Virus record (IMG/VR): IMGVR_UViG_3300040758_000220 | Source: an uncultured virus (IMG/VR IMGVR_UViG_3300040758_000220) | Taxonomy: Duplodnaviria > Heunggongvirae > Uroviricota > Caudoviricetes | Length of the DNA stretch: 20,000 nt | Strand: one strand, 5' to 3' | Part shown: positions 2,762-18,928 of the stretch, piece by piece | Layout: each line of letters starts with the position of its first letter | How positions within the stretch are numbered: the first letter of the stretch is position 1 | Translations under genes and position numbers: made by a program | Notes under the pieces: generated by a model | What the model saw: only the letters and a program-made list of their open reading frames with translations | What the model was told of the DNA's origin: nothing | Databases searched by the model: none

Positions 2762-3004
2762 CTAAAGGTCCGCCAGCGCCAGCACCGTGATTCCAAGCAC
2801 GGTCAGGCAGGCCAGGAAGAACGTCACGGAGAAGGTTCCGCGCGCCAGTTTGGCCGTAACCGATCCCTCCGTCTCCCCCTCGAATCCGTGCTCCCGGAGC
2901 CGGCGGGCAAGCTCGGCATAGGTCACGTCTGCCCGCTTTAGCTCGGCCTTGAGCAACCGACGCGCCTTGTCGGCCCACTCCTTCTCTTTGGTTGCAAGCC
3001 CCAT
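2762..3004 (-). CDS. DUF6471-like HTH regulator divergent from the transposase
   Basis: W...LLKAELKRADVTYAELARRL...ETEGSVTAKLARGTFS..FFL.CL pattern; GAGGT RBS; such genes are often seen beside IS1595 transposases. Confidence 0.85.
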   Translation of the reverse strand: MGLATKEKEWADKARRLLKAELKRADVTYAELARRLREHGFEGETEGSVTAKLARGTFSVTFFLACLTVLGITVLALADL

Positions 3005-3032
3005 CTGGCTACCTCACTTTTCTGTCCGGACC

Positions 3033-3113: not shown

Positions 3114-4100
3114 ATGTCCCAACACTTCCTCCTCTCCGCCGCCGCTCGCACCCTCTCCCTGGGCGCCGTGCTTCGCATGACCCCCGAGGAAGCCGAGGCG
3201 GCTTTCCGGTCGATCCGCTGGCATGACACAGATGGCAAGCCGGTGTGCCCGCACTGCGGCTGCCCCACGGTATGGGACTGCCGCAAAGCCAATGGCGCCC
3301 CGCGCTGGCGTTGCAAGGCGTGCCGCAAGTGCTTCTCGGTCACGTCCGGGACGCTGTTCGCGTTCCACAAGCTGCCCATCCGCGATTACCTCGCGGCCAT
3401 CGCCATCTTTTGCAACGAGGTGAAGGGCAAATCGGCCCTGGCGCTGTCCCGCGATCTGGGGACACAGTACAAGACCGCTTTCGTCCTAGCGCACAAGCTG
3501 CGCGAGGCGATGGCGTCGGAACTCAAGGGCCTGATGGTGGGCGGACCCGGCAAGGTCGTGGAAACTGACGGCGGCTATTTTGGCGGCTACGTAAAGCCGG
3601 CCAACTACAAGGAGAACCGCCGCGACCGCAGGCTGGCGCAGAACCAGAACGGCAAACGCCAGGTCGTGGTGGTGGTCCGGGAGCGGGATGGGCGCACCCT
3701 GCCGGCCGTGTTCAAGTCCGAGGGCGCCGCGCTGGGGTTCATAACGTCCCGCGTTGCCAAGGGCACCGAGCTTGTGGCCGACGAAGCCGCGTCGTGGAAT
3801 GACCTACAGGCCCGGTTCGCCATGCAGCGGATCGACCACGGGCAAGCGTACTCGGATCGCGGCGTCTACTCGAATGGCGCCGAAGAGTTCTTCTCCCGGA
3901 TGCGCCGGGGCGAGATCGGGCACCACCACCACGTCGCCGGGCCGTATCTGATCCGCTACGCGCAAGAGGCGTCCTGGCGCGAGGATCACCGGCGGGTGGA
4001 CAACGGCCGGCAGGTCCAGGGCGTGATGGGGCTGGCGATGGCTTGCCGGCCGAGCGTGGACTGGTGTGGGTACTGGCAGAGGGCGCAGAAGGCGGCGTAG
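3114..4100 (+). CDS. tnp: IS1595-family DDE transposase
   Basis: N-terminal zinc ribbon CPHC...CKAC, SVTSGTLF, HTH region, catalytic VETDGGYFGG / ADE / NGAEEFFS motifs. Confidence 0.96.
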   Translation: MSQHFLLSAAARTLSLGAVLRMTPEEAEAAFRSIRWHDTDGKPVCPHCGCPTVWDCRKANGAPRWRCKACRKCFSVTSGTLFAFHKLPIRDYLAAIAIFCNEVKGKSALALSRDLGTQYKTAFVLAHKLREAMASELKGLMVGGPGKVVETDGGYFGGYVKPANYKENRRDRRLAQNQNGKRQVVVVVRERDGRTLPAVFKSEGAALGFITSRVAKGTELVADEAASWNDLQARFAMQRIDHGQAYSDRGVYSNGAEEFFSRMRRGEIGHHHHVAGPYLIRYAQEASWREDHRRVDNGRQVQGVMGLAMACRPSVDWCGYWQRAQKAA

Positions 4101-4106
4101 CGCCAC

Positions 4107-4592
4107 TCAGGCCGCTTCCGAGTATTCCTTCACTGGGCCGGGCTGATTGTCCACTAGCGCATCAAATTCCGCGTCTCTCCGTTTCCGAAGCATTTCGGTG
4201 GCCCACCGCATCAGACTGGTGGATGGCGCCCCACGCTTGCGCATCATCTCCAGTTGGGGGGGCACATAAAGGAGTGACTGAGTATGGCGCTCGGCAAGTC
4301 GTCCAAGCGCTTCGCCGCGCCCGGTGTTGGCCCAGGCCCACTCGAAATCGTCCTTGAGGAATTCAAACGGCGTTGCTAATCTGTCCCGCAGGACGCGCCC
4401 CACGAGCCCAGCCTCTTGCTCCTTGAGACGGACGCGGGCGATCAGTCCCAAAACGCGTACAGGACCGTATGTCATCTCGGCGATGACGCCGAGAGGGATG
4501 ATGTGGCCGGCTTCCCGTTGCAGATCGCAATGGTACACGATGCGCGACAGGGTGAGGCGACCCGGCCGGATCGCTACCACGTTGTCGGTCAT
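4107..4592 (-). CDS. Kinase-associated protein (possibly remote DUF3037-like)
   Basis: ATG 4592 with AAGGAG RBS overlapping the kinase stop; beta-rich N-terminus RIVYHCDL...IPLGVIAE and SLLYVPP, reminiscent of partners of HipA-like kinases. Confidence 0.7.
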   Translation of the reverse strand: MTDNVVAIRPGRLTLSRIVYHCDLQREAGHIIPLGVIAEMTYGPVRVLGLIARVRLKEQEAGLVGRVLRDRLATPFEFLKDDFEWAWANTGRGEALGRLAERHTQSLLYVPPQLEMMRKRGAPSTSLMRWATEMLRKRRDAEFDALVDNQPGPVKEYSEAA

Positions 4593-4605
4593 CAAACGCA
4601 CTCCT

Positions 4606-5406
4606 TCAGACGCCCAACACGGCCCGAAGGCCGGTCCTTCGGGCCAGCAGGTTACCTAGTATGTTCGCTCGGAATGGCTGTGGCAAGTAGAACATAGGGA
4701 GTCGGTTCACCAGCCTGGCAATCTCCCCTTCGGGGAGAGCGCATATCCGATCGGCTGTTTCGGCCATCACGTCGGCGTGATCCGCTCCCGGCAGCCCAGG
4801 TCCCAGGAGCGCGACCGGGCTGGTTGGCCCTTTCCAGCTATAGGACATGGAGTGGCCATGATCGTAAAAACCGGTCTGACCTTCCTCGTCAGGGCTGTCT
4901 AAGTTGAAATTGACGTGATCGAGCTTCCGGTCGCCATCGCCGATCCAAGTGTGGAACACCCGCATGGCGGAAAATGTCGGCAGGGCGCCAGACGCCTGCT
5001 GCCCCGAGATAAGGTTCCGCTTGGCAGCCTCATTCCATTTCATCGACTGATGAAAGGCCCAGGCGGATATTGATCGCCCCAGCTTGTATTGTCCTGGCGC
5101 AGATGCGCCCCAAAGGACAACAGGACAGACCGGGAGAGCGAGTAGATAGGCCAAATCGAACGCCAGTTTCTCGTGGGCCGCTCGACAATGTCCGGTCTCG
5201 CCGCCCTTGTTTGGCCCCGGCTTAGCGACGCCGCGCACCCCGCTAATCTTGTTAACGACATTGATGGATTGGGATTCCCCTTCCGGGAGAGCCGCCCCCT
5301 CTCTCCACTCATCAGGTGATGTCTCAATCGTCGCAAACCACTCATCTCGGAAGGACCGTTGAACTACCGAAAATCGTACTGCGGCCGCTGTGCGCCGACC
5401 ACTCAT
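4606..5406 (-). CDS. HipA-like / PI3-4K-fold Ser/Thr kinase
   Basis: VAKP (ATP-binding Lys), AHEKLAFDLAYLLALPV (helix-C Glu), FHTWIGDGDRK (catalytic loop), FYDHGHS (Mg-binding); GGAG RBS. Confidence 0.85.
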   Translation of the reverse strand: MSGRRTAAAVRFSVVQRSFRDEWFATIETSPDEWREGAALPEGESQSINVVNKISGVRGVAKPGPNKGGETGHCRAAHEKLAFDLAYLLALPVCPVVLWGASAPGQYKLGRSISAWAFHQSMKWNEAAKRNLISGQQASGALPTFSAMRVFHTWIGDGDRKLDHVNFNLDSPDEEGQTGFYDHGHSMSYSWKGPTSPVALLGPGLPGADHADVMAETADRICALPEGEIARLVNRLPMFYLPQPFRANILGNLLARRTGLRAVLGV

Positions 5407-5576
5407 GGCAATTCACTCCAATAAAGTGCCCCACGGTGGCATCCCCGGATGTGACAGAAGATAGGTCCCACGCGAGGCACTTCGTCAACTAGATATGGGC
5501 GCGTCTTGCCCTGGTTACCCCCAAGATACGCGATTGTGGCCGACTCGGCACAATCGGACGAGTCGGTCGCCTGATT

Positions 5577-6347
5577 TTAGGCAGCGCCGTCGGACGGGAG
5601 CAGAGAAGCGGCTAGGCGGCTGCGAGCAAGGCCCGCTTCTGCCCTATCGAGGTCGCGTCCGATTTTCGACCGGCACTGAGCCAGAAGGCGCCCGTCAACG
5701 CTTGACGGTAGGCCCCGCCCCATCTCCCACATATCATGAACGGCCGCGACATCGGACGGGGTTAGTCTGGGGGCAAACTGAGAGACGACATCGTCTATGG
5801 CGACTTGGACATCCGTGGCCTGTTTCGTCGTCCCGTCGATCTCGCCCTCCGTGATTTCTGATGTCGAGTAGATGCCCTTCTTGGTGGGAACCGCAAACAA
5901 CATGCCCTTCTGCACCATTCGATAAAGCTTTGATGTCAACTGGTTACGCTTGTGTATTTCCTTAGTGGCCTTGTACAACCCGATCAATATCCTATCCAGC
6001 GATAGGATGCCCCCCGCCTCATTGATCAGATTGAGAATGGCGAACTCAAGCTTGTCGGCGTTCGACACGCTCAGCTCAGCCAACAGTTCCTCGGGAAGGT
6101 CTGCGACGTCCTCCGGTGTCAGTGTCAGCCGCTGGGCCAACCCAGGGCGAACGGCGGCGTGGCCGGCCGTTGCGGCGTCTAGCTCCCTTTGTGCGGCCAC
6201 CAAGCTATCCGCGAGGTTAGCGAATTGACTTGCTGACTGAATATGACGATCATGACGCCACGGCTCCCCCGCATAGCGGTGGGCTAACTTCTCGTGAACT
6301 CCCTGTTGTTCCTTGACAAAAGGGAGATAGCTAACTAGATTGCTCAA
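5577..6347 (-). CDS. Winged-helix-like DNA/RNA-binding passenger protein
   Basis: TTG start at 6347, 7 nt after AGGAG; LTPEDVADLPEELL...GGILSLDRILIGLY...KLYRMVQKGMLFAVPTKKGIYS resembles a winged HTH. The longer ORF-track start runs through the tRNA and is rejected. Confidence 0.8.
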   Translation of the reverse strand: MSNLVSYLPFVKEQQGVHEKLAHRYAGEPWRHDRHIQSASQFANLADSLVAAQRELDAATAGHAAVRPGLAQRLTLTPEDVADLPEELLAELSVSNADKLEFAILNLINEAGGILSLDRILIGLYKATKEIHKRNQLTSKLYRMVQKGMLFAVPTKKGIYSTSEITEGEIDGTTKQATDVQVAIDDVVSQFAPRLTPSDVAAVHDMWEMGRGLPSSVDGRLLAQCRSKIGRDLDRAEAGLARSRLAASLLPSDGAA

Positions 6348-6367
6348 GCTCAGTCTCCTAGATTGAG

Positions 6368-6461
6368 TGGCGGAAGGGGCGGGATTCGAACCCGCGGTAC
6401 CCCGGCTAGGGGGTACGAGGTGTTGGTAGCACCCCGGCATAGGCCGCTCGCCCACCCTTCC
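6368..6461 (-). tRNA. Class II tRNA with serine-type body and ACC (Gly) anticodon
   Basis: Cloverleaf: acceptor GGAAGGG/CCCTTCC, G73, encoded CCA; D arm GGC-GAGCGGCCTAT-GCC; anticodon arm GGGTG-CTACCAA-CACCT; 7-bp variable stem GTACCCC/GGGGTAC; T arm GCGGG-TTCGAAT-CCCGC. Confidence 0.93.
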
Positions 6462-6537
6462 ACGATGCACCGGCACCATTGCCGGCATGTCTTCGTCTTC
6501 TTCCTCTGCAGAACCACACACACTTCCGTATCAATAT

Positions 6538-6615
6538 CGCGAAGGGGCTTGTGCCGTAGCGGTGCAGGCCCCTTCCGCGTTACGAATTATAGGCGAAGAC
6601 GAACCGAATTGTAAG
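6538..6615 (-). promoter_or_regulatory. Putative sigma70 promoter and leader hairpin for the tRNA operon
   Basis: TATAAT on minus strand at 6586-6591, weak -35 (TTACAA) 17 nt upstream; GC-rich inverted repeat 6538-6579 at the predicted 5' end of the transcript. Confidence 0.55.
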
Positions 6616-6756
6616 TAGAGGCGAGCCGGCTCGTGGCCGGCGCGTGAGTAACGCGAATTTGTTCGCATTCCGTCCCATGACGCGCGACTAGATTGGTTTG
6701 AGTCGCAATTATGCGACGCGCCGAAAATGGGAGCGGGGCGTCCGCGAAATGGCGCC

Positions 6757-7173
6757 CTACACCAGCGCGCGCCGCGTCGCCTTCCCCATCCCCACCGTCC
6801 GCGCCATGCCCCGGGCCTGGAGCTTGCCGAACGTCTCCCGGAGCTTGGTCCGCGTCCGCTTCATGGTGTGCCGATCCGGGAACCGGACACCCTTCGCCCG
6901 GAGCGCGCCCAGCGCCATGTCCCGAATCGCCAGCGGCTTCTCGGCCTCGCGGAGCATGTCGATCGCCAGCCGGCGTAGCTCGCCCCGCTTGAAGATCGGG
7001 TTGGGCTTGTGGAACCGGGGCGGCAGCTTGAGGTCGGGGGCGATGGCCTGGATGCGGGCTTCTAGGTCCGCTAGCTTGTCGCGGTAGCCCTGAGCGAGCG
7101 TCTCGGCTTGCTTCAAGGCAAAGTGGCAGCGGGTCCGGGCGCGGCGGAGCTTGGTTAGGTCTGTGTCTTTCAC
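6757..7173 (-). CDS. Basic coiled-coil plus winged-helix-like passenger protein
   Basis: 138-aa ORF; FKRGELRRLAIDMLREAEKPL motif recalls small proteins seen near ends of alphaproteobacterial IS1595 elements. Confidence 0.75.
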   Translation of the reverse strand: MKDTDLTKLRRARTRCHFALKQAETLAQGYRDKLADLEARIQAIAPDLKLPPRFHKPNPIFKRGELRRLAIDMLREAEKPLAIRDMALGALRAKGVRFPDRHTMKRTRTKLRETFGKLQARGMARTVGMGKATRRALV

Positions 7174-7791: not shown

Positions 7792-8337
7792 GTGATCCCC
7801 CCAATCGAGACTCGGTATAATGGCTATCGGTTCCGCTCGCGGACCGAGGCGCGCTGGGCTGTGTTTTTCGATGCCGCTGGCATCCAATACGAATATGAAA
7901 AGGAGGGTTACGCTCTTCCGTCAGGGTGGTATCTTCCTGATTTCTGGCTACCCGATTTCAAGTTGTGGTTTGAGGTGAAGGGGCAGCGGCCGACGCCGGT
8001 TGAGGCTCGGCTCTTGTCCGAACTGGTCTTCGCGAGCGGGCACACAGGGCTTCTCGCTACGGGTGCGCCTCAGCCCGTCGCCCAGATTCTCCATTTCATT
8101 CCCCCGCGCCCGGGCGACTTCGATGGCTGGGACGCTGGGACGCAGTGGTATCTGTGTGATGACAGGCGAGACGACGGCCAGTTTTGGTTAATGAACGACG
8201 ATTGCGGCGCCTTCCACATCGGCCCTGACGATTGCCACACCAACTCGACGCCCGACCACCGGAAATACCCGGCCGTTCACTCAGCAACCGCCCGCAGCTA
8301 TAGAGCCGCCCGGTCTGCGCGTTTCGAGCGCCACTGA
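7792..8337 (+). CDS. Phage PD-(D/E)xK-like nuclease
   Basis: IETRYNGYRFRSRTEARWAVFFD...YEYE...YLPDFWLP...FEVKG motif set. Confidence 0.85.
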   Translation: MIPPIETRYNGYRFRSRTEARWAVFFDAAGIQYEYEKEGYALPSGWYLPDFWLPDFKLWFEVKGQRPTPVEARLLSELVFASGHTGLLATGAPQPVAQILHFIPPRPGDFDGWDAGTQWYLCDDRRDDGQFWLMNDDCGAFHIGPDDCHTNSTPDHRKYPAVHSATARSYRAARSARFERH

Positions 8338-9170
8338 TGGCGATCCCAGACGAGATCGAGCGCGTTGCGTTGCTCGGGTGGCACATCTACCCACAATCGA
8401 ACTATGGGCGCAGCGCGTGTTTCGAGGGTGCTCACTCGGCGGCGACGGCCGATCTTGATGTGATCGCCAACTGGTGCCGAGCTTATCCGAATTGCAACTG
8501 GCGCGTCGTCTGTGGTCCCTCGCGTATTTGGGGTTTGGACCTCGATGTGCCCCCTTTGCATTTACATGACGGCGTATCTAACTTCGCCAAGTTGGCAGCC
8601 GAGCGTGGGGGTCTGCCGGCGAGGCCGGCAATGCGCTCGGGTGGGGGTGGCCTAGCCATCTTCTTCGCGCACAGCGGCGAGCCGATCCGCGGTAAGGCCG
8701 GTGTCCCGGTTCCCGGTTCCGACCCTCGGCGCGGCCAGCAAACCCAAACGATCCCACCATCCCGCCACCATTCGACCGGCAAACCCTATAGGTGGATCGC
8801 CGCGCCTTGGGACACTTCGCCACCCCCGGCGCCGGGGTGGTTGTTGGAATTGGTCAAGCCCCCGCCCGAGCCGGAAGCCAAGGCCCCGGCGCGGCTAGCG
8901 AGCGGCGACCAAGCCCGGAACTATGCCGTTGCGGCATTACATCACGCAGTTCGGCGGGTGGGCGCGGCCGGCAAGGGTGGCCGCAACGACACTCTAAACC
9001 GCGAAACCTTTTCTTTGGCCCGGTTTGTCCTCGCCGGCGCGTTGTCCGAAGCGGAAGTCCGGGACGCCCTCTTTGCCGCCGCACATGCGAACGGTATGAC
9101 CGGCGATGACGGTGCCCGCGCCGCGCTGATGACGATTGAGAGCGGGTTGAAATCCCGGCGGCCGGCATGA
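8337..9170 (+). CDS. Bifunctional DNA primase/polymerase (prim-pol) with C-terminal helical domain
   Basis: GWHIYP, AATADLDVIANW, LDLD catalytic motif, SGGGG, IPPSRH...YRW, C-terminal GGRNDTLN. Confidence 0.9.
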   Translation: MAIPDEIERVALLGWHIYPQSNYGRSACFEGAHSAATADLDVIANWCRAYPNCNWRVVCGPSRIWGLDLDVPPLHLHDGVSNFAKLAAERGGLPARPAMRSGGGGLAIFFAHSGEPIRGKAGVPVPGSDPRRGQQTQTIPPSRHHSTGKPYRWIAAPWDTSPPPAPGWLLELVKPPPEPEAKAPARLASGDQARNYAVAALHHAVRRVGAAGKGGRNDTLNRETFSLARFVLAGALSEAEVRDALFAAAHANGMTGDDGARAALMTIESGLKSRRPA

Positions 9171-10630
9171 CGCTGCCATTCGACCCGGCTCAGGTGGCGA
9201 GAGCGGCGCACGAACGGGCGGAAGCTTCTCCTGTCGAGACGGTCGAGGTTGTCCCGCGGTTCAACGGCGAGGCGATAGCCGAGGCACTCACCGAGATTGT
9301 GCCTCCTGAGTTCGCGGATGATAGCCTTGGCCTGGAGTTCAGCCGACGATTCAGCCCGGCCCTCCGATATGTGGACAAGTGGGGTAAGTGGATGGCGTGG
9401 GACGGGAAGGTGTGGCGGCAAGACAATACCTTGCGGGTCTACGATCTGGTGCGTCGGGTGTGTCGCGTCGCAAGCGCGGAAGCGAAAGGCGCCGTGCGCC
9501 AGCGCCTTGCGTCCGGCAAGACCATCGCTGCGGTCGAAAAGCTGGTCCGGTCAGACCGCCGGCATGCCGCCACCGTCGAACAATGGGACTCCAACCCTTG
9601 GTTATTGAATACCCCCGACGGGGTGCTGGACCTGAAGACTGGAGAGACAGGGCCGCATGAGGCGGACCATCACATGACCAGGATTACCGCGTCATCCGTG
9701 GGCGGGGAGTGCCCGCTATGGCTGGCGTTTCTCGCGAAAGTCACAAACAAGAGCACCGAACTTTGTGAGTATTTACAGCGCGTTTCTGGGTATTGTTTAA
9801 CCGGCCTGACAACCGAACACGCGATGTTTTTTGCCTACGGGACAGGGCGCAACGGGAAGGGTGTGTTCCTGAACACCCTCGCGGCGATCATGGGCGACTA
9901 TGGCCGCATTTCGCCAGTCGGGACCTTTACCGCAGCAACCTATGATCGCCACGACGCCGAGCTTGCTTTTTTACAGGGCGCCCGGCTGGTGACGGCACAG
10001 GAAACCGAAGAGGGCCGGCAGTGGGCCGAAGCACGTGTCAAATCCCTGACTGGCGGCGACCCGATCACCGCGCATTTCATGCGCCAGGATTATTTCACGT
10101 TTATCCCACAGTTCAAGCTGTTCATCGCCGGAAACCACAAGCCAGGCCTTCGCAATATCGACGAAGCGATCAAGTCCAGGTTCAACCTGGTGCCGTTCGA
10201 GGTGACAATCCCGAAGAACGAGCGCGACATCGAGTTGCCCGAAAAGCTAAGGGGCGAGTGGCCCGGTATCCTACAGTGGGCGGTTGATGGTTGCCTTGCG
10301 TGGCAGAGATCGGGCCTACAGGCCCCGGATGTCGTCCGGAAGGCGACCGACAATTACTTTGAGGCGGAAGACTCGATGGGGCTGTGGATCGCGGAAGCCT
10401 GCCTCACTGGCGAATGGCGTTGGGGGTCGAGTGCCGAGTTGTTCAAATCGTGGAGCGCCTGGGCGCGGACCGCTGGCGAACCCGCCGTCTCGCAGAAGCG
10501 ATTCGGGGATGCGCTGGAAAGCCGCGGCTTCCCCCGGAAGCGCAAGCCCGGCACCGGCGACCGGGGCTTCGAACGGATTTGCCTGAACGTCAAGCCGCCC
10601 GTCACCGACCCGCCGGCTGATTGGGAATAG
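9167..10630 (+). CDS. P4-family / D5-like primase-helicase (SF3)
   Basis: D5_N-like region (WDGKVW, LLNTPDGVLDLKTG), Walker A GTGRNGKG, KSLTGGDPITA, GNHKP; ATGA overlap with the prim-pol gene. Confidence 0.95.
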   Translation: MTLPFDPAQVARAAHERAEASPVETVEVVPRFNGEAIAEALTEIVPPEFADDSLGLEFSRRFSPALRYVDKWGKWMAWDGKVWRQDNTLRVYDLVRRVCRVASAEAKGAVRQRLASGKTIAAVEKLVRSDRRHAATVEQWDSNPWLLNTPDGVLDLKTGETGPHEADHHMTRITASSVGGECPLWLAFLAKVTNKSTELCEYLQRVSGYCLTGLTTEHAMFFAYGTGRNGKGVFLNTLAAIMGDYGRISPVGTFTAATYDRHDAELAFLQGARLVTAQETEEGRQWAEARVKSLTGGDPITAHFMRQDYFTFIPQFKLFIAGNHKPGLRNIDEAIKSRFNLVPFEVTIPKNERDIELPEKLRGEWPGILQWAVDGCLAWQRSGLQAPDVVRKATDNYFEAEDSMGLWIAEACLTGEWRWGSSAELFKSWSAWARTAGEPAVSQKRFGDALESRGFPRKRKPGTGDRGFERICLNVKPPVTDPPADWE

Positions 10631-11715: not shown

Positions 11716-12618
11716 ATGAGACAATATCAACAGGTCACTGACCGAATCGTGGCGATGCTGGAAGCCGGCACGCGCCCGTGGAATCAGGATTGGAGCGCAG
11801 GCGGCGGGCGTCCGTTGCGCCACGACGGCACGCCATACCGCGGCGCCAACGTCCTGAACCTATGGGCGGCCGGCATGGCGCGCGGCTTCGCTTCCCAGCA
11901 TTGGATGACCTACAAGCGGGCGGCGGAACTGGGTGGCCAAGTGCGCAAGGGCGCGCGGTCGGAGTCGGCTTTTTATGTCGGCACCGTCACGCGCACCGAG
12001 GAACGCGACGGCGAGGAGATCGACCGCACGATTCCTTTCCTCAAGGCTTACTGCGTGTTCAATGCCGACGAGATCGAGGGGTTGCCTGGGCAGTATTATT
12101 TCAAGCCCGAGGCGCATCCCCTGGCCGATGGCGAGCGGTTGCCGGCGGCGGACGACTGGATTGCGCGGACGGGCGCGCGCATCGTGCACGGCGGCGGCCG
12201 TGCGTATTACCATCGGCTGGCCGATCAGATTCACTTGCCAGACTTTGCCAGTTTTGTTTCCGGCGCGGGGTACTACAGCACGGCCTTGCATGAACTGACA
12301 CATTGGAGCGGCGCTGAAAAGCGGCTGGATCGTACCAAGGGCAGGGTCTTCGGTGATCCTGAGTACGCCTTCGAGGAACTGGTTGCGTGGCAGGAGGAAC
12401 CGACTATGGACACCACCTATGAATTTTTTTTCACCGGTGCGGACGGCGCAGAGTTTGGCCTGTCCTACGGCTACGGCTCCGAGGCGGAGGCGCAGGCTTC
12501 CGCAAGCCGGCTTGGGTGCGCCTTCCGGGCGGCAATCACGAAGCCCGCGCGATATGTGCGCGATCTTTCTGGCCTCTTTGATCTGCGCCCCGGCCAGCTC
12601 ATCCAGCGGGATGCCTGA
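11716..12618 (+). CDS. ardC: ArdC-family ssDNA-binding antirestriction protein, C-terminally truncated and fused to an unrelated ORF
   Basis: VTDRIVAMLEAGTRPW, YRGANVLNLW, WMTYK...GGQVRKG, VFNADEIEGL, AYY..LADQIHLP, HELTHW zincin motif, YAFEELVA; the resemblance stops abruptly after EELVA. Confidence 0.88.
   Translation: MRQYQQVTDRIVAMLEAGTRPWNQDWSAGGGRPLRHDGTPYRGANVLNLWAAGMARGFASQHWMTYKRAAELGGQVRKGARSESAFYVGTVTRTEERDGEEIDRTIPFLKAYCVFNADEIEGLPGQYYFKPEAHPLADGERLPAADDWIARTGARIVHGGGRAYYHRLADQIHLPDFASFVSGAGYYSTALHELTHWSGAEKRLDRTKGRVFGDPEYAFEELVAWQEEPTMDTTYEFFFTGADGAEFGLSYGYGSEAEAQASASRLGCAFRAAITKPARYVRDLSGLFDLRPGQLIQRDA
12406..12618 (+). CDS. Small hypothetical protein in frame with the ardC tail
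   Basis: AGGAGG RBS at 12392-12397 ahead of ATG 12406. Confidence 0.55.
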   Translation: MDTTYEFFFTGADGAEFGLSYGYGSEAEAQASASRLGCAFRAAITKPARYVRDLSGLFDLRPGQLIQRDA

Positions 12619-13487: not shown

Positions 13488-13536
13488 CCACCCACGCCCG
13501 GCAATGAGGCCGGACGCCAACGGCAGGGAGCCGACA

Positions 13537-14379
13537 ATGAAACTCAAGGACCTTGTGAAGCAAAGCGGCGGCAGTGGTTCCGACCTGTGGAACGTGCCGG
13601 TCGAACTGCTGGACGTTAACCCCGGCAATATCCGCTTGGACGGGCCGGCGCTGCGCGAGCACATCGCGGGGCTGGCCGAGTCGATCATGGCGCAGGGCTT
13701 TCTGCGCTCGCGCCCGTTGACCATCCGCCAAGGCGACGACCGGCTGATCGTGGTCGATGGCAACTGCCGGCTGCTGGCGGTCAAGATCGCGATTGAGAAA
13801 GGGGCGCCGATCAAGAACCTGCCGTGCCTCTCGGAAGCGCCGAACACGTCCGAGGCCGACCGGACGCTCAACATGCTGCTGGCAAACTCAGGCTTGCAGC
13901 ATACGCCGGTGGAGTACGCTGCGGCGATCAACAAGCTGCTGTCCTACGGTTGGACGGATACCGACATCGCCAAGAAGCTCGGCCGATCGCGGCAATGGGT
14001 GACGAACACGCTGGAGACGGCGGCGCTGCCGCCCGAGGCGCATGCACTGATCGCGGCGGGCACGGCTTCGGCGACGACGCTGCGCCAGGCGGTGCGGCAG
14101 GGCGGAACGGAAGCCGTGGGGCGGATTGCCCAGGTCGCGGCGGACACGGGGCGGAAGCACGTCACGGCGCGACATCTCAGGACGGTCGTGATCGAGGCCG
14201 GGCCTGTAACCGAGGTACAGGCGGAGCCGGCGCCCGTCGTGGCGGCGCCGGAGCCTGATGCCATACAGGATGAACTGGTCACACTGCGGCAGGCGGTGCG
14301 GGCGTTCCTCGCGGCGTGGGACGATCCGAACAGCGGGCGCGTCAACGAGACCGTGGCGGCGCTGCGGGAGGCCGTGTGA
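13537..14379 (+). CDS. ParB/Spo0J-like protein (ParB N-terminal domain plus HTH)
   Basis: NIR...LAESIMAQGFL..PLTI...VVDGNCRLLA; HTH TDIAKKLGRSRQWV; GGGAG RBS. Confidence 0.88.
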   Translation: MKLKDLVKQSGGSGSDLWNVPVELLDVNPGNIRLDGPALREHIAGLAESIMAQGFLRSRPLTIRQGDDRLIVVDGNCRLLAVKIAIEKGAPIKNLPCLSEAPNTSEADRTLNMLLANSGLQHTPVEYAAAINKLLSYGWTDTDIAKKLGRSRQWVTNTLETAALPPEAHALIAAGTASATTLRQAVRQGGTEAVGRIAQVAADTGRKHVTARHLRTVVIEAGPVTEVQAEPAPVVAAPEPDAIQDELVTLRQAVRAFLAAWDDPNSGRVNETVAALREAV

Positions 14380-16985: not shown

Positions 16986-17224
16986 GGCTTCTCATCCAAC
17001 GCCAGCGACATCCCGCGCCACGACTCCTCGCTGAACGCCGGCAGCGGCGGACGTTCGGCAAACGTCGGCGCGCGATACCGGCCGCAGCGCTTCAACGGAC
17101 GCAACCGATCGGCCGTGCGCAGCGCATCGAGCGTCACCAGCGCCACGTCCAGGCTGGCACGCAATTGCTCGACCACGCGCTCCTGGTCGGTGATTGCGGC
17201 GGTGAGGGCGTCGCCTTGGGTCAC
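16982..17224 (-). CDS. Hypothetical protein (coiled-coil N-terminus)
   Basis: GTG 17224 overlaps the SLOG stop; its stop overlaps the endonuclease ATG. Confidence 0.6.
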   Translation of the reverse strand: MTQGDALTAAITDQERVVEQLRASLDVALVTLDALRTADRLRPLKRCGRYRAPTFAERPPLPAFSEESWRGMSLALDEKP

Positions 17225-17589
17225 CGCAAATCCCAAACCACCACGCCAGCCGCCTTTGCCAGCTCGACCATCCCGTTCGTGCCGCTCCCGCCGGGAAACG
17301 CCACACACCCATCCGGCACCCAGTCCTTGAGCATCCGCTGGTTGCGCAACGGCCCAGCCGCGTTGCTCTCGCTCGCCCAACGCGCCGGCACGCCAATGTA
17401 GGGCACCTCGCGCGCGATGGCCCATTCTTCCGCCCAACGGTCGGCGCCCGTCAGCAGCTTTGATTTCTTGTCGCAGCAGGCGCCGTGGATCAGCAATGTG
17501 ATCGGCTTTCGGGCGTGCGCCAGGTCGAGCACTTCGAAGACGCGGCGGCGGTCGGTGTAGGCGCGGCCTCCGGTTACGACTAGCTTCAC
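17221..17589 (-). CDS. YspA/DUF2493 SLOG-family protein
   Basis: LVVTGGR, LIHGA...GADRWA, AGPLRNQRML, VAFPGGSGTNGM motifs. Confidence 0.92.
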   Translation of the reverse strand: MKLVVTGGRAYTDRRRVFEVLDLAHARKPITLLIHGACCDKKSKLLTGADRWAEEWAIAREVPYIGVPARWASESNAAGPLRNQRMLKDWVPDGCVAFPGGSGTNGMVELAKAAGVVVWDLR

Positions 17590-17933
17590 CCCATCAACTC
17601 CCCCGGCGCTTCGCCGGGCCGCACCCCACCCCGAACAACAACCAAAGCCCGGTCAACCAGTTCCGACACCTGCGCCTCCTTCATCTTCAAAAACGCCGGC
17701 ACATGCGCCAAATCGGCCACGATAATCAACACCGGAAACGCATCCTGGCCCGGTGAAATGTCATCTCCGTCGATCTCATAGCTGCCGCTTTCCTCGATCG
17801 GGACCATCAGCGGCGCTTGGCCGCGCACCAGCATAACAAAGCGGCAGCCGTCCGGCAGGACCGCATGCGCAACCTGCTTTTCGCGTTCGATGACATAGAC
17901 ATTTGCGCGGTGTAGTTTGTTGGGCAGGGTCAT
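17586..17933 (-). CDS. Hypothetical protein
   Basis: 115 aa, AGGAGAAGG RBS, stop overlaps the SLOG start. Confidence 0.7.
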   Translation of the reverse strand: MTLPNKLHRANVYVIEREKQVAHAVLPDGCRFVMLVRGQAPLMVPIEESGSYEIDGDDISPGQDAFPVLIIVADLAHVPAFLKMKEAQVSELVDRALVVVRGGVRPGEAPGELMG

Positions 17934-17965
17934 CGCACCTTCTCCTGAAGGCGATTATCCGGGAC

Positions 17966-17994
17966 TTGACGAATGGCTCCGGACGTGCCATATT
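17966..17994 (+). promoter_or_regulatory. Putative transposase promoter with -35 inside IRL
   Basis: TTGACG, 17-nt spacer, CATATT. Confidence 0.55.
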
Positions 17995-18007
17995 CCTGTC
18001 GTCAGGC

Positions 18008-18928
18008 ATGAAGGCACCCCCGATGGGCCAGATCAAGTTCACCAAGCAGATGACCGTCCCCGAGTTCGATGCTCTGTTCCCGGACGATGATGCCTGCAAG
18101 GCTTACCTCCGGGATCGCCGGTGGCCCGATGGCGCCATCAAGTGCCCGCGCTGCGGATCGGCTGAGCGGGTGTTCGCCCTCAAGACGATGCCCTTCAAGT
18201 GGGAATGCATGGCGTGCGGCAAGAGTACATCCTACCGCTTCTCCGTCACTGCTGGTACCGTATTCGAGAACACCAACGTCCACATGCTGGCGTGGTTCAA
18301 GGTCATCTATCTCATGCTGACCAGCAAGAAAGGCATGAGCGCCCTGCAAATCCATCGGATGATGGGTTTCGGCTCCTACTCGACCGCGCATTACATGTGC
18401 CATCGCGTCCGGGCCGCGCTGATCGATCCTGACTTCCGCAAGTTGATGGGGATCGTAGAAGTTGATGAAACTTACGTTGGCGGAAAGAACAAGAACCGTC
18501 ATCGGGACAAGCGCACCCCCGGCACCGGCGGGTCCGGCAAGGAAATCGTGATCGGCGCCGTCGAGCGGCAGGGGTCGGTTGTCGCGCGCGTGCTGCGCGA
18601 GGCCAACATGCAGACGATGGGCCATTTCGTCCGTGCGGCTGTATCCGACAAGGTCAGTCTGGTCGCTACCGATGAACACAGCGGATACCTCGGACTGGCA
18701 CCCGACTACATCCACGAGTCGGTGCGCCACGGCCAGGGCGAATATGTGCGCGGGGTGGTTCATACTCAGACCATTGACAGCTTCTGGTCCCTCTTGAAGC
18801 GCGGCATCATGGGTAGCTTCCACCATGTCAGCGCCAAGTACCTGCCGTTCTATGTGGCCGAATTTGAGTGGCGTTACAACAACCGGAAGAACCCCGACAT
18901 CTTCGGGGAGGCCGTAGGAAGATGCTGA
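18008..18928 (+). CDS. tnp: IS1595-family (ISXO2-like domain) transposase
   Basis: CPRC...CMAC zinc ribbon, FSVTAGTVFE, VEVDETYVGG, TDE, HTQTIDSFWSLLKRG, EFEWRYN; start could be 18008 or 18023. Confidence 0.96.
   Translation: MKAPPMGQIKFTKQMTVPEFDALFPDDDACKAYLRDRRWPDGAIKCPRCGSAERVFALKTMPFKWECMACGKSTSYRFSVTAGTVFENTNVHMLAWFKVIYLMLTSKKGMSALQIHRMMGFGSYSTAHYMCHRVRAALIDPDFRKLMGIVEVDETYVGGKNKNRHRDKRTPGTGGSGKEIVIGAVERQGSVVARVLREANMQTMGHFVRAAVSDKVSLVATDEHSGYLGLAPDYIHESVRHGQGEYVRGVVHTQTIDSFWSLLKRGIMGSFHHVSAKYLPFYVAEFEWRYNNRKNPDIFGEAVGRC

Follow-up and report, generated by a model that had tools for sequence, protein, structure and literature searches.

A conserved, transposase-adjoining unit of a serine-type tRNA with variable anticodon and a winged-helix gene in IMGVR_UViG_3300040758_000220

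Here, we propose that a stretch of DNA from an uncultured virus (IMG/VR record IMGVR_UViG_3300040758_000220; 20,000 nt, called the window throughout) holds two independent modules within a larger mobile element, and that the first of them (module A) is a regulated transfer RNA (tRNA) which would be charged with serine and misread a codon of another amino acid, a reading towards which we lean with some reserve. What is established is that a unit made of this tRNA and the gene of a winged-helix protein (P0001) exists and is conserved, that the tRNA fold is selected, that the anticodon varies, and that transposases adjoin the unit. The original prediction had seen in this DNA one putative operon made of a mismatched tRNA, a winged-helix protein, a HipA-like kinase (P0002) and a partner of the kinase (P0003), with the caveat that these could be two independent modules. 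The caveat was right, as the co-occurrence data for the kinase indicate, and we treat the kinase and its partner as module B.

A tRNA and a winged-helix gene as one unit

Our proposal is based in the first place on 22 related loci (L001-L022), 4 from species genomes and 18 from metagenomes, which make up 16 distinct elements once identical copies are merged; L005 and L006 are identical copies of the window. The search patterns were the N-terminal and central motifs of the P0001 family, so the sample is limited to full-length members. The link between tRNA and winged-helix gene drawn in the original prediction is borne out, since ARAGORN finds a same-strand tRNA directly upstream of the P0001 homologue in 21 of the 22 loci (15 of the 16 distinct elements), with 6-74 nt between the tRNA end and the start codon. 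In the sole locus without a tRNA, L004, the protein matches only from residue 55-72 on and its N-terminal part is different. Judged by this arrangement, we take tRNA and gene to be one conserved unit.

The window tRNA (Table 1) is reported by ARAGORN as tRNA-Gly(ACC), and its anticodon would read the glycine codon GGU, yet its body is that of another tRNA. It has a 7-bp acceptor stem with G1-C72, G2-C71 and A3-U70, a 5-bp T stem, a 7-bp variable-arm stem, unpaired U8 and G9, and the anticodon loop C-U-ACC-A-A. The structural features of tRNA-Ser are all there (long variable arm, class II frame, discriminator G73, G2-C71, A3-U70), with ACC in place of a serine anticodon (NGA or GCU). The identity elements of glycine include U73 and C2-G71; the window tRNA, with its class II body, long arm, G73 and G2-C71, fits glycine only at C35 and C36. 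The body thus has the architecture of bacterial tRNA-Ser and not of tRNA-Gly, and the mismatch noticed in the original prediction is real. The fold has a minimum free energy of -52.4 kcal/mol (z = -2.67), and Rfam RF00005, run on positions 6200-6700 alone, scores 43.8 bits against a cut-off of 29. A whole-window Rfam scan at the gathering threshold with fast filters did not report the tRNA; such filters are able to hide long-arm tRNAs. A covariance model of the family (R1) gives the window tRNA 84 bits and finds no extra tRNA copies in the window or L004, and an exact search of genome contigs for the window tRNA returned 0 matches.

Across the loci, 14 of the 15 distinct tRNAs are class II tRNAs of 93-98 nt, and the same fraction has a serine-type variable arm. 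An alignment of 14 tRNAs has 23 consensus pairs, 18 of them with compensatory changes, which points to a tRNA fold under selection. Long variable arm and G2-C71 are found in 14 of 14, A3-U70 in 13 and G73 in 11; by eye, U33 is present in 13 of 14, and a 7-nt anticodon loop and a purine at 37 in all. On this scaffold sit 10 anticodons: ACC (window, L005, L006), UAC (L001; L007-9), UAU (L002), CAA (L003/L016), UGG (L010, L011, L020), UAG (L012/13, L015), AUC (L014), UAA (L017), UUA (ochre; L018, L019) and CGC (L021/22). The relatives' anticodons belong to Val, Ile, Leu, Pro, Asp, Ala and ochre, and the Gly-tied role of the original prediction, in which the tRNA would let glycine codons be read when glycyl-tRNA synthetase or tRNA-Gly is attacked, finds no support. 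Anticodon swapping on a serine scaffold has occurred repeatedly in nature. The closest relative, L007 (tRNA at 2928-3023), has a protein 67% identical to P0001 and acceptor, D and T arms identical to those of the window tRNA; anticodon arm and variable arm are entirely different (ACC vs UAC), a difference which looks like cassette exchange and not point mutation. In Marinobacter iranensis (L002, one isolate genome), which has 52 tRNA matches besides the module tRNA, three long-arm tRNA-Ser genes are laid out like the module tRNA, and the Leu and Tyr genes differ from it.

Two observations on individual tRNAs may be added. In L005 the copy of the tRNA (4745-4838) differs by one base, T to A in the variable-arm stem, which breaks a pair; the copy is otherwise identical. 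In L017 a second odd tRNA (5587-5674; 86-88 nt, long variable arm, UGG for Pro, 44 bits by model R1) directly follows the winged-helix gene, a possible tandem of irregular tRNAs.

Module A, from 6615 to 5577 on the minus strand, reads as one transcription unit of promoter, stem-loop, small hairpin, tRNA and winged-helix gene. The TATAAT promoter, hairpin leader, tRNA and AGGAG ribosome-binding site 8 nt past the CCA that the original prediction placed on one strand are all present. The promoter matches the consensus at 10 of 12 positions in a promoter scan, which found 4 promoter-like sites in 4000-6800 where shuffles lead one to expect 0.8, and promoter-like boxes lie at the same position in related loci. 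The base of the leader hairpin is GAAGGGG...CCCCUUC in the window, with no U-tract after the hairpin, and usually GAAGGG...CCCUUC in relatives, with differing inner pairs. The TTG start of P0001 at 6347, 20 nt from the tRNA, is backed by the aligned N-termini of homologues. The order of -10-like box, long hairpin, spacer, small hairpin and tRNA recurs in the related loci examined, the small hairpin standing 8-10 nt ahead of tRNA position 1. Over 14 loci, 79.7% of the cells of the small hairpin pair, against 14-56% with the partner slid by 1-3 columns, and 3 of its 6 pairs have changes on both sides; in most measures 12-34 shuffles out of 500 equal or exceed the real data, which makes the support moderate. 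A reading frame open from P0001 upstream through the tRNA to a GTG at 6521, including an ATG in the small-hairpin loop, was taken as chance, most relatives having no such open frame.

Upstream of the leader hairpin, forward ATTCG repeats cluster in 170 nt: 23 copies in 2357 nt, compared with 0.8 per kb per strand elsewhere, an enrichment of about 12-fold. Nine of 14 loci have them, among these the window (about 6587-6660, minus strand) and L012 (about 2010-2040, with three copies 11 nt apart), and the reverse orientation has 1 copy only. We regard the repeats as candidate binding sites for the winged-helix protein or for the 138-aa protein encoded upstream (Table 1). A metatranscriptome contig identical to 6357-6535 covers the tRNA and 74 nt of leader and ends 11 nt past the CCA, the rest of the 5 kb compared being uncovered in that run. 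It hints at expression, if weakly, as contigs cannot prove transcription.

P0001 has no match in Pfam, NCBIfam or PADLOC, and no named relative in the ESM Atlas. A word-indexed search gave 38 homologues, mostly of 165-225 aa and called 'hypothetical protein' where named, the named ones being from Rhizobium, Mesorhizobium and Burkholderia. They align from the TTG start to residue ~175; the last ~80 aa are found only in the window protein. A profile of the family, run on 1.84 billion cluster representatives, gave 997 matching clusters at E<=0.001; with the threshold at E<=1e-10 there are 629, and with E<=1e-30 there are 188. In an AlphaFold model (mean predicted local distance difference test, pLDDT, 82) an antiparallel helical hairpin (residues 4-65, pLDDT ~98) is followed by a linker and a winged helix (96-161). 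The best Foldseek match reaches only E=0.0097. The exhaustive aligner VIA matches the winged helix with Z 9-11 and a root-mean-square deviation of 1.4-2.5 A over 62-69 residues to cullin WHB, Z-alpha, PadR, MarR, IclR and MecI domains. The winged-helix fold class (three helices and a beta wing), which the original prediction had put forward as a likeness, is thus confirmed at the level of the model.

Genome surveys at class and at order level, of 401 genomes each, both recovered the full-length family from 1 genome only, which was the seed. Five partial matches to the C-terminal domain occur in small genomes, with no tRNA nearby; one weak partial match turned up in 72,556 plasmid records, and no winged-helix relative was found in viral contigs. 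Proteins of 111-153 aa in L036 (1465-1926) and L038 (1474-1809) have only the half made of LPxELxxEL and the winged helix, and likewise no nearby tRNA.

A DDE transposase adjoins the unit in 12 of the 16 distinct elements. Transposases were called by all-vs-all clustering of open reading frames (ORFs) and Pfam, with Pfam run on 7 proteins and the others assigned by BLASTP clustering at 1e-6. Six elements have an IS1595/ISXO2-type transposase (window; L001, where it is frameshifted; L012/13; L014; L015; L017) and six an IS1-like one (PF03400; L003/16, L011, L018, L019, L020, L021/22). The window transposase has both the ISXO2-like DDE domain and the N-terminal zinc ribbon of the IS1595 type (Table 1). 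Its convergent arrangement recurs in L012, L014 and L015, and in L001 and L017 the transposase lies upstream; the IS1-like group has tRNA, winged-helix gene and transposase in that order on one strand, and in L003 and L019 the gaps measure 10-36 nt. A tree of the winged-helix proteins is star-like and resolves no grouping by transposase type. In L021 a 15-nt inverted repeat (93% complementary; 4367-4381 and 6863-6877) encloses the whole stretch from a small ORF through tRNA and winged-helix gene to the transposase, its left arm lying at the end of a CDP-alcohol phosphatidyltransferase gene, a housekeeping gene; this IS1-like element is the only one in which a bracketing repeat was seen. The unit is single-copy in the 4 genomes of 4.

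Table 1. Features of the window, with coordinates in the 20,000-nt stretch
Feature	Coordinates	Strand	Remarks
Sigma-70-type promoter	6586..6615	-	-35 CTTACA 6615-6610, 18-nt spacer, -10 TATAAT 6591-6586
Long 5' leader hairpin, GC-rich	6541..6575	-	begins a few nt past the -10 box
Small hairpin	6470..6485	-	CCGGCA / AUGG loop / UGCCGG; 8 nt before tRNA position 1
Class II tRNA, 94 nt	6368..6461	-	anticodon ACC (reads GGU, Gly), G73, encoded CCA; ARAGORN tRNA-Gly(ACC)
AGGAG ribosome-binding site	6355..6359	-	begins 8 nt past tRNA CCA
P0001, winged-helix protein, 256 aa	5577..6347	-	helical hairpin 4-65, winged helix 96-161, C-terminal extension (model)
Spacer between modules, 170 nt	5407..5576	-
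P0002, HipA/CtkA/PI4K-like-fold kinase, 266 aa	4606..5406	-
P0003, kinase partner, 164 aa	4107..4601	-	no known family
IS1595/ISXO2-type DDE transposase	3114..4100	+	PF12762 E=6e-34, PF12760 E=4.3e-07; convergent with module
DUF6471 protein, 80 aa	2762..3004	-	PF20075 E=2.7e-23; divergent from transposase
138-aa protein upstream of tRNA	6757..7173	-	no Pfam match; kept in IS1595-type elements
Resolvase	611-1183
Prim-Pol and D5-type primase-helicase	8337-10630
ArdC (anti-restriction) and zincin peptidase	11716-12618
ParB-like protein	13504-14379
SLOG (YAcAr) protein	17221-17589

A proposed misreading tRNA and its alternatives

In light of a serine body under a foreign anticodon, what might the tRNA do? 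The identity of tRNA-Ser resides in the variable arm and the tertiary frame, with contributions from G73 and acceptor pairs, and does not depend on the anticodon, and tRNA-Ser variants with other anticodons mistranslate, as the accessible parts of PMC9976931 set out. The serine scaffold is thus the one bacterial scaffold that can be charged whatever its anticodon. Seryl-tRNA synthetase (SerRS), which does not read the anticodon, may then charge the window tRNA with serine, and the tRNA would insert Ser at GGU, in the role of a genetically encoded mistranslator or missense suppressor. The winged-helix protein would be a DNA-binding regulator, probably repressing its own promoter, and this self-repression would keep a potentially toxic tRNA under control; the unit would travel with the DDE transposase, and the benefit to the element may lie in addiction, defence or a stress response. 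A tRNA that inserts serine is the most economical reading, since the scaffold stays that of serine, the anticodon varies and its loop retains what the ribosome requires.

The choice of codons has a pattern. No anticodon has G34, and U34 or A34 is found in 13 of the 15 distinct elements. At most loci the codon that pairs with the anticodon by Watson-Crick rules is one of the less used synonyms in local ORFs (as a share of all synonyms: GGT 0.16, GTA 0.10 and 0.08, ATA 0.11, TTG 0.03, CTA 0.05, TTA 0.10), the exceptions being GAT (0.33), GCG (0.31) and CCA (0.25-0.33). Within the window, GGT makes up 1 of 61 Gly codons in the core genes and 34 of 236 in the other genes, a weak hint of avoidance that is confounded by the higher third-position GC of two core genes. 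The idea of a private code, in which cognate codons would stand where relatives have Ser, was rejected, as the codons stand at the standard residue. At the two loci with an ochre tRNA, L018 and L019, there is no in-frame TAA or TAG in the winged-helix genes or in the L019 transposase.

Several observations weigh against a serine-inserting, mobile and self-regulated tRNA. In the module's own genes, cognate codons encode conserved Leu, Pro, Asp and Val residues, so efficient insertion of Ser would harm the module's own proteins, and the codon-rarity figures rest on crude local ORF sets. Three tRNAs (L012, L018, L019) have A73, which favours leucine identity in Escherichia coli (PMC9976931, accessible parts). 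The L018 tRNA also has C33 and acceptor-stem mismatches, and looks decayed. In L021 (4898-4970) and L022 (807-879) the tRNA is a 73-nt class I tRNA with anticodon CGC, without G3-U70 or an encoded CCA, so the P0001 family is not strictly tied to class II tRNAs. Among the allo-tRNAs, the serine-identity tRNAs to which we compare the unit below, six allo-tRNA(UAU) variants made into amber suppressors were inactive in E. coli, according to the accessible text of PMC5389517. The RNA-library contig may be DNA carry-over. The fold of P0001 also matches RNA binders (SelB in complex with selenocysteine insertion sequence (SECIS) RNA, Z 9.0; Z-alpha domains). Finally, no transposase was found in the DNA examined of L002, L007-9 and L010 (3 elements), nor were convincing terminal inverted repeats of the IS1595-type units in the window, L012, L014 and L001.

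A more specific version, which we consider doubtful, is that the unit is a transposon-borne codon-rewriting device: once derepressed, the serine-charged tRNA would hit a codon that is minor in the host and poison the translation of genes rich in it, acting as an RNA toxin (addiction) or as a barrier against DNA of foreign codon usage. If this were true, a tRNA would for the first time be the toxin or defence effector itself.

One option that does without decoding is that the tRNA is a cis-acting processing or stability element only, with RNase P and 3' processing setting the 5' end and the level of the winged-helix/transposase mRNA, and with an unused tRNA whose anticodon drifts. The constant co-orientation of tRNA and gene with a 6-74 nt spacer would suit such an element, as would the one-strand order of the IS1-like group with its short gaps (L003, L019), the conserved leader hairpins, which suggest control at the RNA level, the end of the RNA-library contig 11 nt past the CCA, and the inactivity of the allo-tRNA(UAU) variants in E. 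coli translation (PMC5389517, accessible text). For processing, however, acceptor and T domain suffice, yet the anticodon stem has stayed paired despite many double changes; 13-14 of 14 tRNAs retain U33, the 7-nt loop and purine 37, the set of anticodons is non-random, without G34 and mostly for locally minor codons, and 14 of the 15 distinct elements have preserved a serine-type variable arm. We therefore consider this option unlikely.

Another option is that the winged-helix protein binds the tRNA itself, its helical hairpin gripping the variable arm, and serves as antitoxin or chaperone in an addiction pair of RNA toxin and protein antitoxin. The helical arm of SerRS holds the variable arm of tRNA-Ser, and P0001 has an antiparallel helical hairpin modelled with high confidence. 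The strict pairing of the protein family with class II tRNAs and the match of the winged helix to the SelB-SECIS complex are further points in its favour, as is the killing of E. coli by two allo-tRNA variants (PMC5389517, accessible text). L021 and L022, however, keep the protein though their tRNA lacks the long arm, and a DNA-binding regulator would suit the ATTCG repeats at the promoter, which leaves tRNA binding a rather slim prospect in our estimate.

The kinase pair and its mobile surroundings

That P0002 is a HipA-like kinase, as the original prediction had it, holds at the level of the fold and through its relatives; P0002 itself has no match to a HipA-family profile, nor to any Pfam family even at E<=10. 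It has no match by sequence in the PDB, and NCBIfam and PADLOC gave nothing useful for P0002 or P0003. There are 78 homologues of P0002; among 24 that were aligned, 6 match PF20613 (HipA_2; best E=5e-09) and 1 matches PI3_PI4_kinase, and D159 and D182 are invariant in 24 sequences of the family. A structural model (pLDDT 91.8, predicted template modelling score 0.91) gave 68 Foldseek matches at E<=0.001, including Helicobacter pylori CtkA (E=1.8e-5, template modelling (TM) score 0.54), PI4KII-alpha, Legionella HipT (E=1.7e-4, TM 0.52) and HipA 3dnv (E=3.6e-4, TM 0.45). On the strength of the model and the relatives, the HipA-like fold of P0002 can be called confirmed.

P0003 has 27 homologues, no named relative in the ESM Atlas and no HipB- or HipS-like match. 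Its role as partner of the kinase is supported by conservation elsewhere: the P0003 homologue KGJ53_10975 has the locus tag adjacent to that of the P0002 homologue KGJ53_10980, and in 5 more putative pairs the longest contig is of equal length for both members. The survey of the kinase family gave 1 weak match in 401 genomes, and viral contigs one kinase relative, without a recognisable partner. Module B is probably a toxin-antitoxin-like or defence-like pair, carried as cargo.

Does the pair work together with the tRNA? The four-part operon of the original prediction, in which the tRNA would act with the kinase as antitoxin, ligand, Gly-decoding rescue or effector, is in our view very improbable. 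All parts do lie on one strand, the 170-nt gap before the kinase is real (5407-5576), a scan found no terminator-like site in it, and the third-position GC of P0001, P0002 and P0003 is similar (0.64-0.69) and below that of the transposase (0.85). By tblastn, however, the window and its two identical copies, L005 and L006, are the sole loci with P0002 and P0003, neither of which turns up in the remaining 20; the kinase pair is found as a pair elsewhere, and the variable anticodon leaves nothing Gly-specific. In L012 and L014 the winged-helix gene is directly followed by the convergent transposase, and the kinase pair of the window fills that gap; because it is absent from the other related loci, we see the pair as cargo between winged-helix gene and transposase. 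By eye, the gap also has a promoter-like pair (TTGACG, 19 nt, TATCTT), which is absent from the promoter-scan list.

Judging by the genes that it encodes (Table 1), the entire window resembles an integrative or conjugative element. More than half of its words are found in 19 peat, wetland and soil metagenome runs from 18 studies (P9 twice), 10 of the 19 runs being possibly its source. According to the last option, an island inserted at an ordinary host tRNA gene, which served as its integration site and came to adjoin P0001 only as a side effect. This option could appeal to the mobile context of the window (resolvase, Prim-Pol, D5 primase, ArdC, ParB-like protein) and to a normal tRNA-Arg near the unit in L007, yet is hardly credible given the mismatch of tRNA body and anticodon, the same strand and spacing in 21 of 22 loci, the conserved leader, the position of the L021 tRNA inside inverted repeats and the full set of its own tRNAs that Marinobacter has besides the module tRNA.

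The genes around the transposase are in part conserved with it. The DUF6471 gene is kept beside the transposase in L001, L006, L012 and L014, and homologues of the 138-aa protein (138-151 aa) are found in L001, L012/L013 and L014, the last with a weak winged-helix match (PF08461, E=0.0028). In L001 (3300-6000) the segment of tRNA and winged-helix gene is inverted relative to the flanking genes for the 138-aa protein, transposase and DUF6471 protein, compared with L012, L014 and the window, and the transposase there is in two overlapping frames. In L012 (3974-4049) and L014 (2753-2845), the divergent region that separates the IS1595 transposase from the DUF6471 gene has near-perfect palindromes of 18-28 nt, which look like operators. 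A second IS1595-type transposase of the window (17903-18928; PF12762, E=1.1e-37) has no tRNA or winged-helix gene adjoining it.

Comparison with known systems

To our knowledge, only few natural tRNAs break the genetic code on purpose, and most of their biology lacks an explanation. In the literature searched, figures and non-text supplements aside, no description was found of a unit of tRNA, winged-helix gene and transposase, and the accessible section on bacterial mistranslating tRNAs in a 2024 JBC review (PMC11415595) contains no such unit.

The closest relatives of the module tRNAs in the literature are the allo-tRNAs, serine-identity tRNAs with 35 different anticodons from soil and sediment metagenomes (PMC5389517; PMC7609411; accessible text of both). 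According to the part of PMC5389517 available, toxin-antitoxin systems and a transposon-related ORF are often near them, serine is inserted by some of them in E. coli, two variants are lethal to E. coli, and polycistrons of allo-tRNAs are mentioned, with which the tandem in L017 may be compared. To the extent that these sources describe them, allo-tRNAs and module tRNAs share serine features under an anticodon that is not one of serine (UAU, Leu and ochre anticodons among them), their origin in soil, peat and sediment metagenomes, and Proteobacteria as hosts. They differ in the acceptor/T branch, which is 8/4 or 9/3 (12 bp) in allo-tRNAs, as far as the accessible text gives it, whereas in module tRNAs it is the canonical 7/5. 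The accessible allo-tRNA text mentions no co-transcribed winged-helix protein, conserved leader or linkage to IS1595 or IS1-like elements, and a word search of the available supplement (helix, transposase, HipA, antitoxin) gave nothing.

The same principle, a SerRS that ignores the anticodon, underlies yeast tRNA-Ser(UGG) and the Candida CUG-Ser tRNA (PMC9976931; PMC11415595; accessible parts), and the UGG (Pro) anticodon of the yeast tRNA is found in 3 elements here. In the parts of these sources that we draw on, the tRNA-Ser variants are chromosomal eukaryotic genes or laboratory constructs, whereas the tRNAs described here are bacterial, mobile, linked to a protein and provided with many anticodons. 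The tRNA-ProX/ProRSx system of Streptomyces is likewise an encoded bacterial tRNA with a mismatch of anticodon and identity (PMC11415595, accessible section). It has a dedicated synthetase, whereas none is linked here and the partners are a winged-helix protein and a transposase.

Among protein systems, P0002 shares with HipA, HipT and CtkA the kinase fold and the arrangement as a two-gene pair; the N-terminal region of HipA is missing from the 266-aa P0002. The module shares with the IS1 and IS1595 families the adjoining DDE transposase (PF12762/PF12760 or PF03400), and in the IS1-like group the small gene of DNA-binding type stands ahead of the transposase, an arrangement that may be likened to insA-insB of IS1. 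A tRNA gene as part of an IS1 or IS1595 element with passenger genes was not found in the literature searched.

Thus, the unit remains an extension of the allo-tRNA phenomenon to canonical tRNA-Ser scaffolds in Proteobacteria, with a defined genetic context. Odd tRNAs of metagenomes gain from it fixed surroundings, consisting of an unnamed protein family, a conserved leader and two transposase families, and as the unit is of ~1 kb and can be cloned, its translation, toxicity, regulation and mobility are directly testable.

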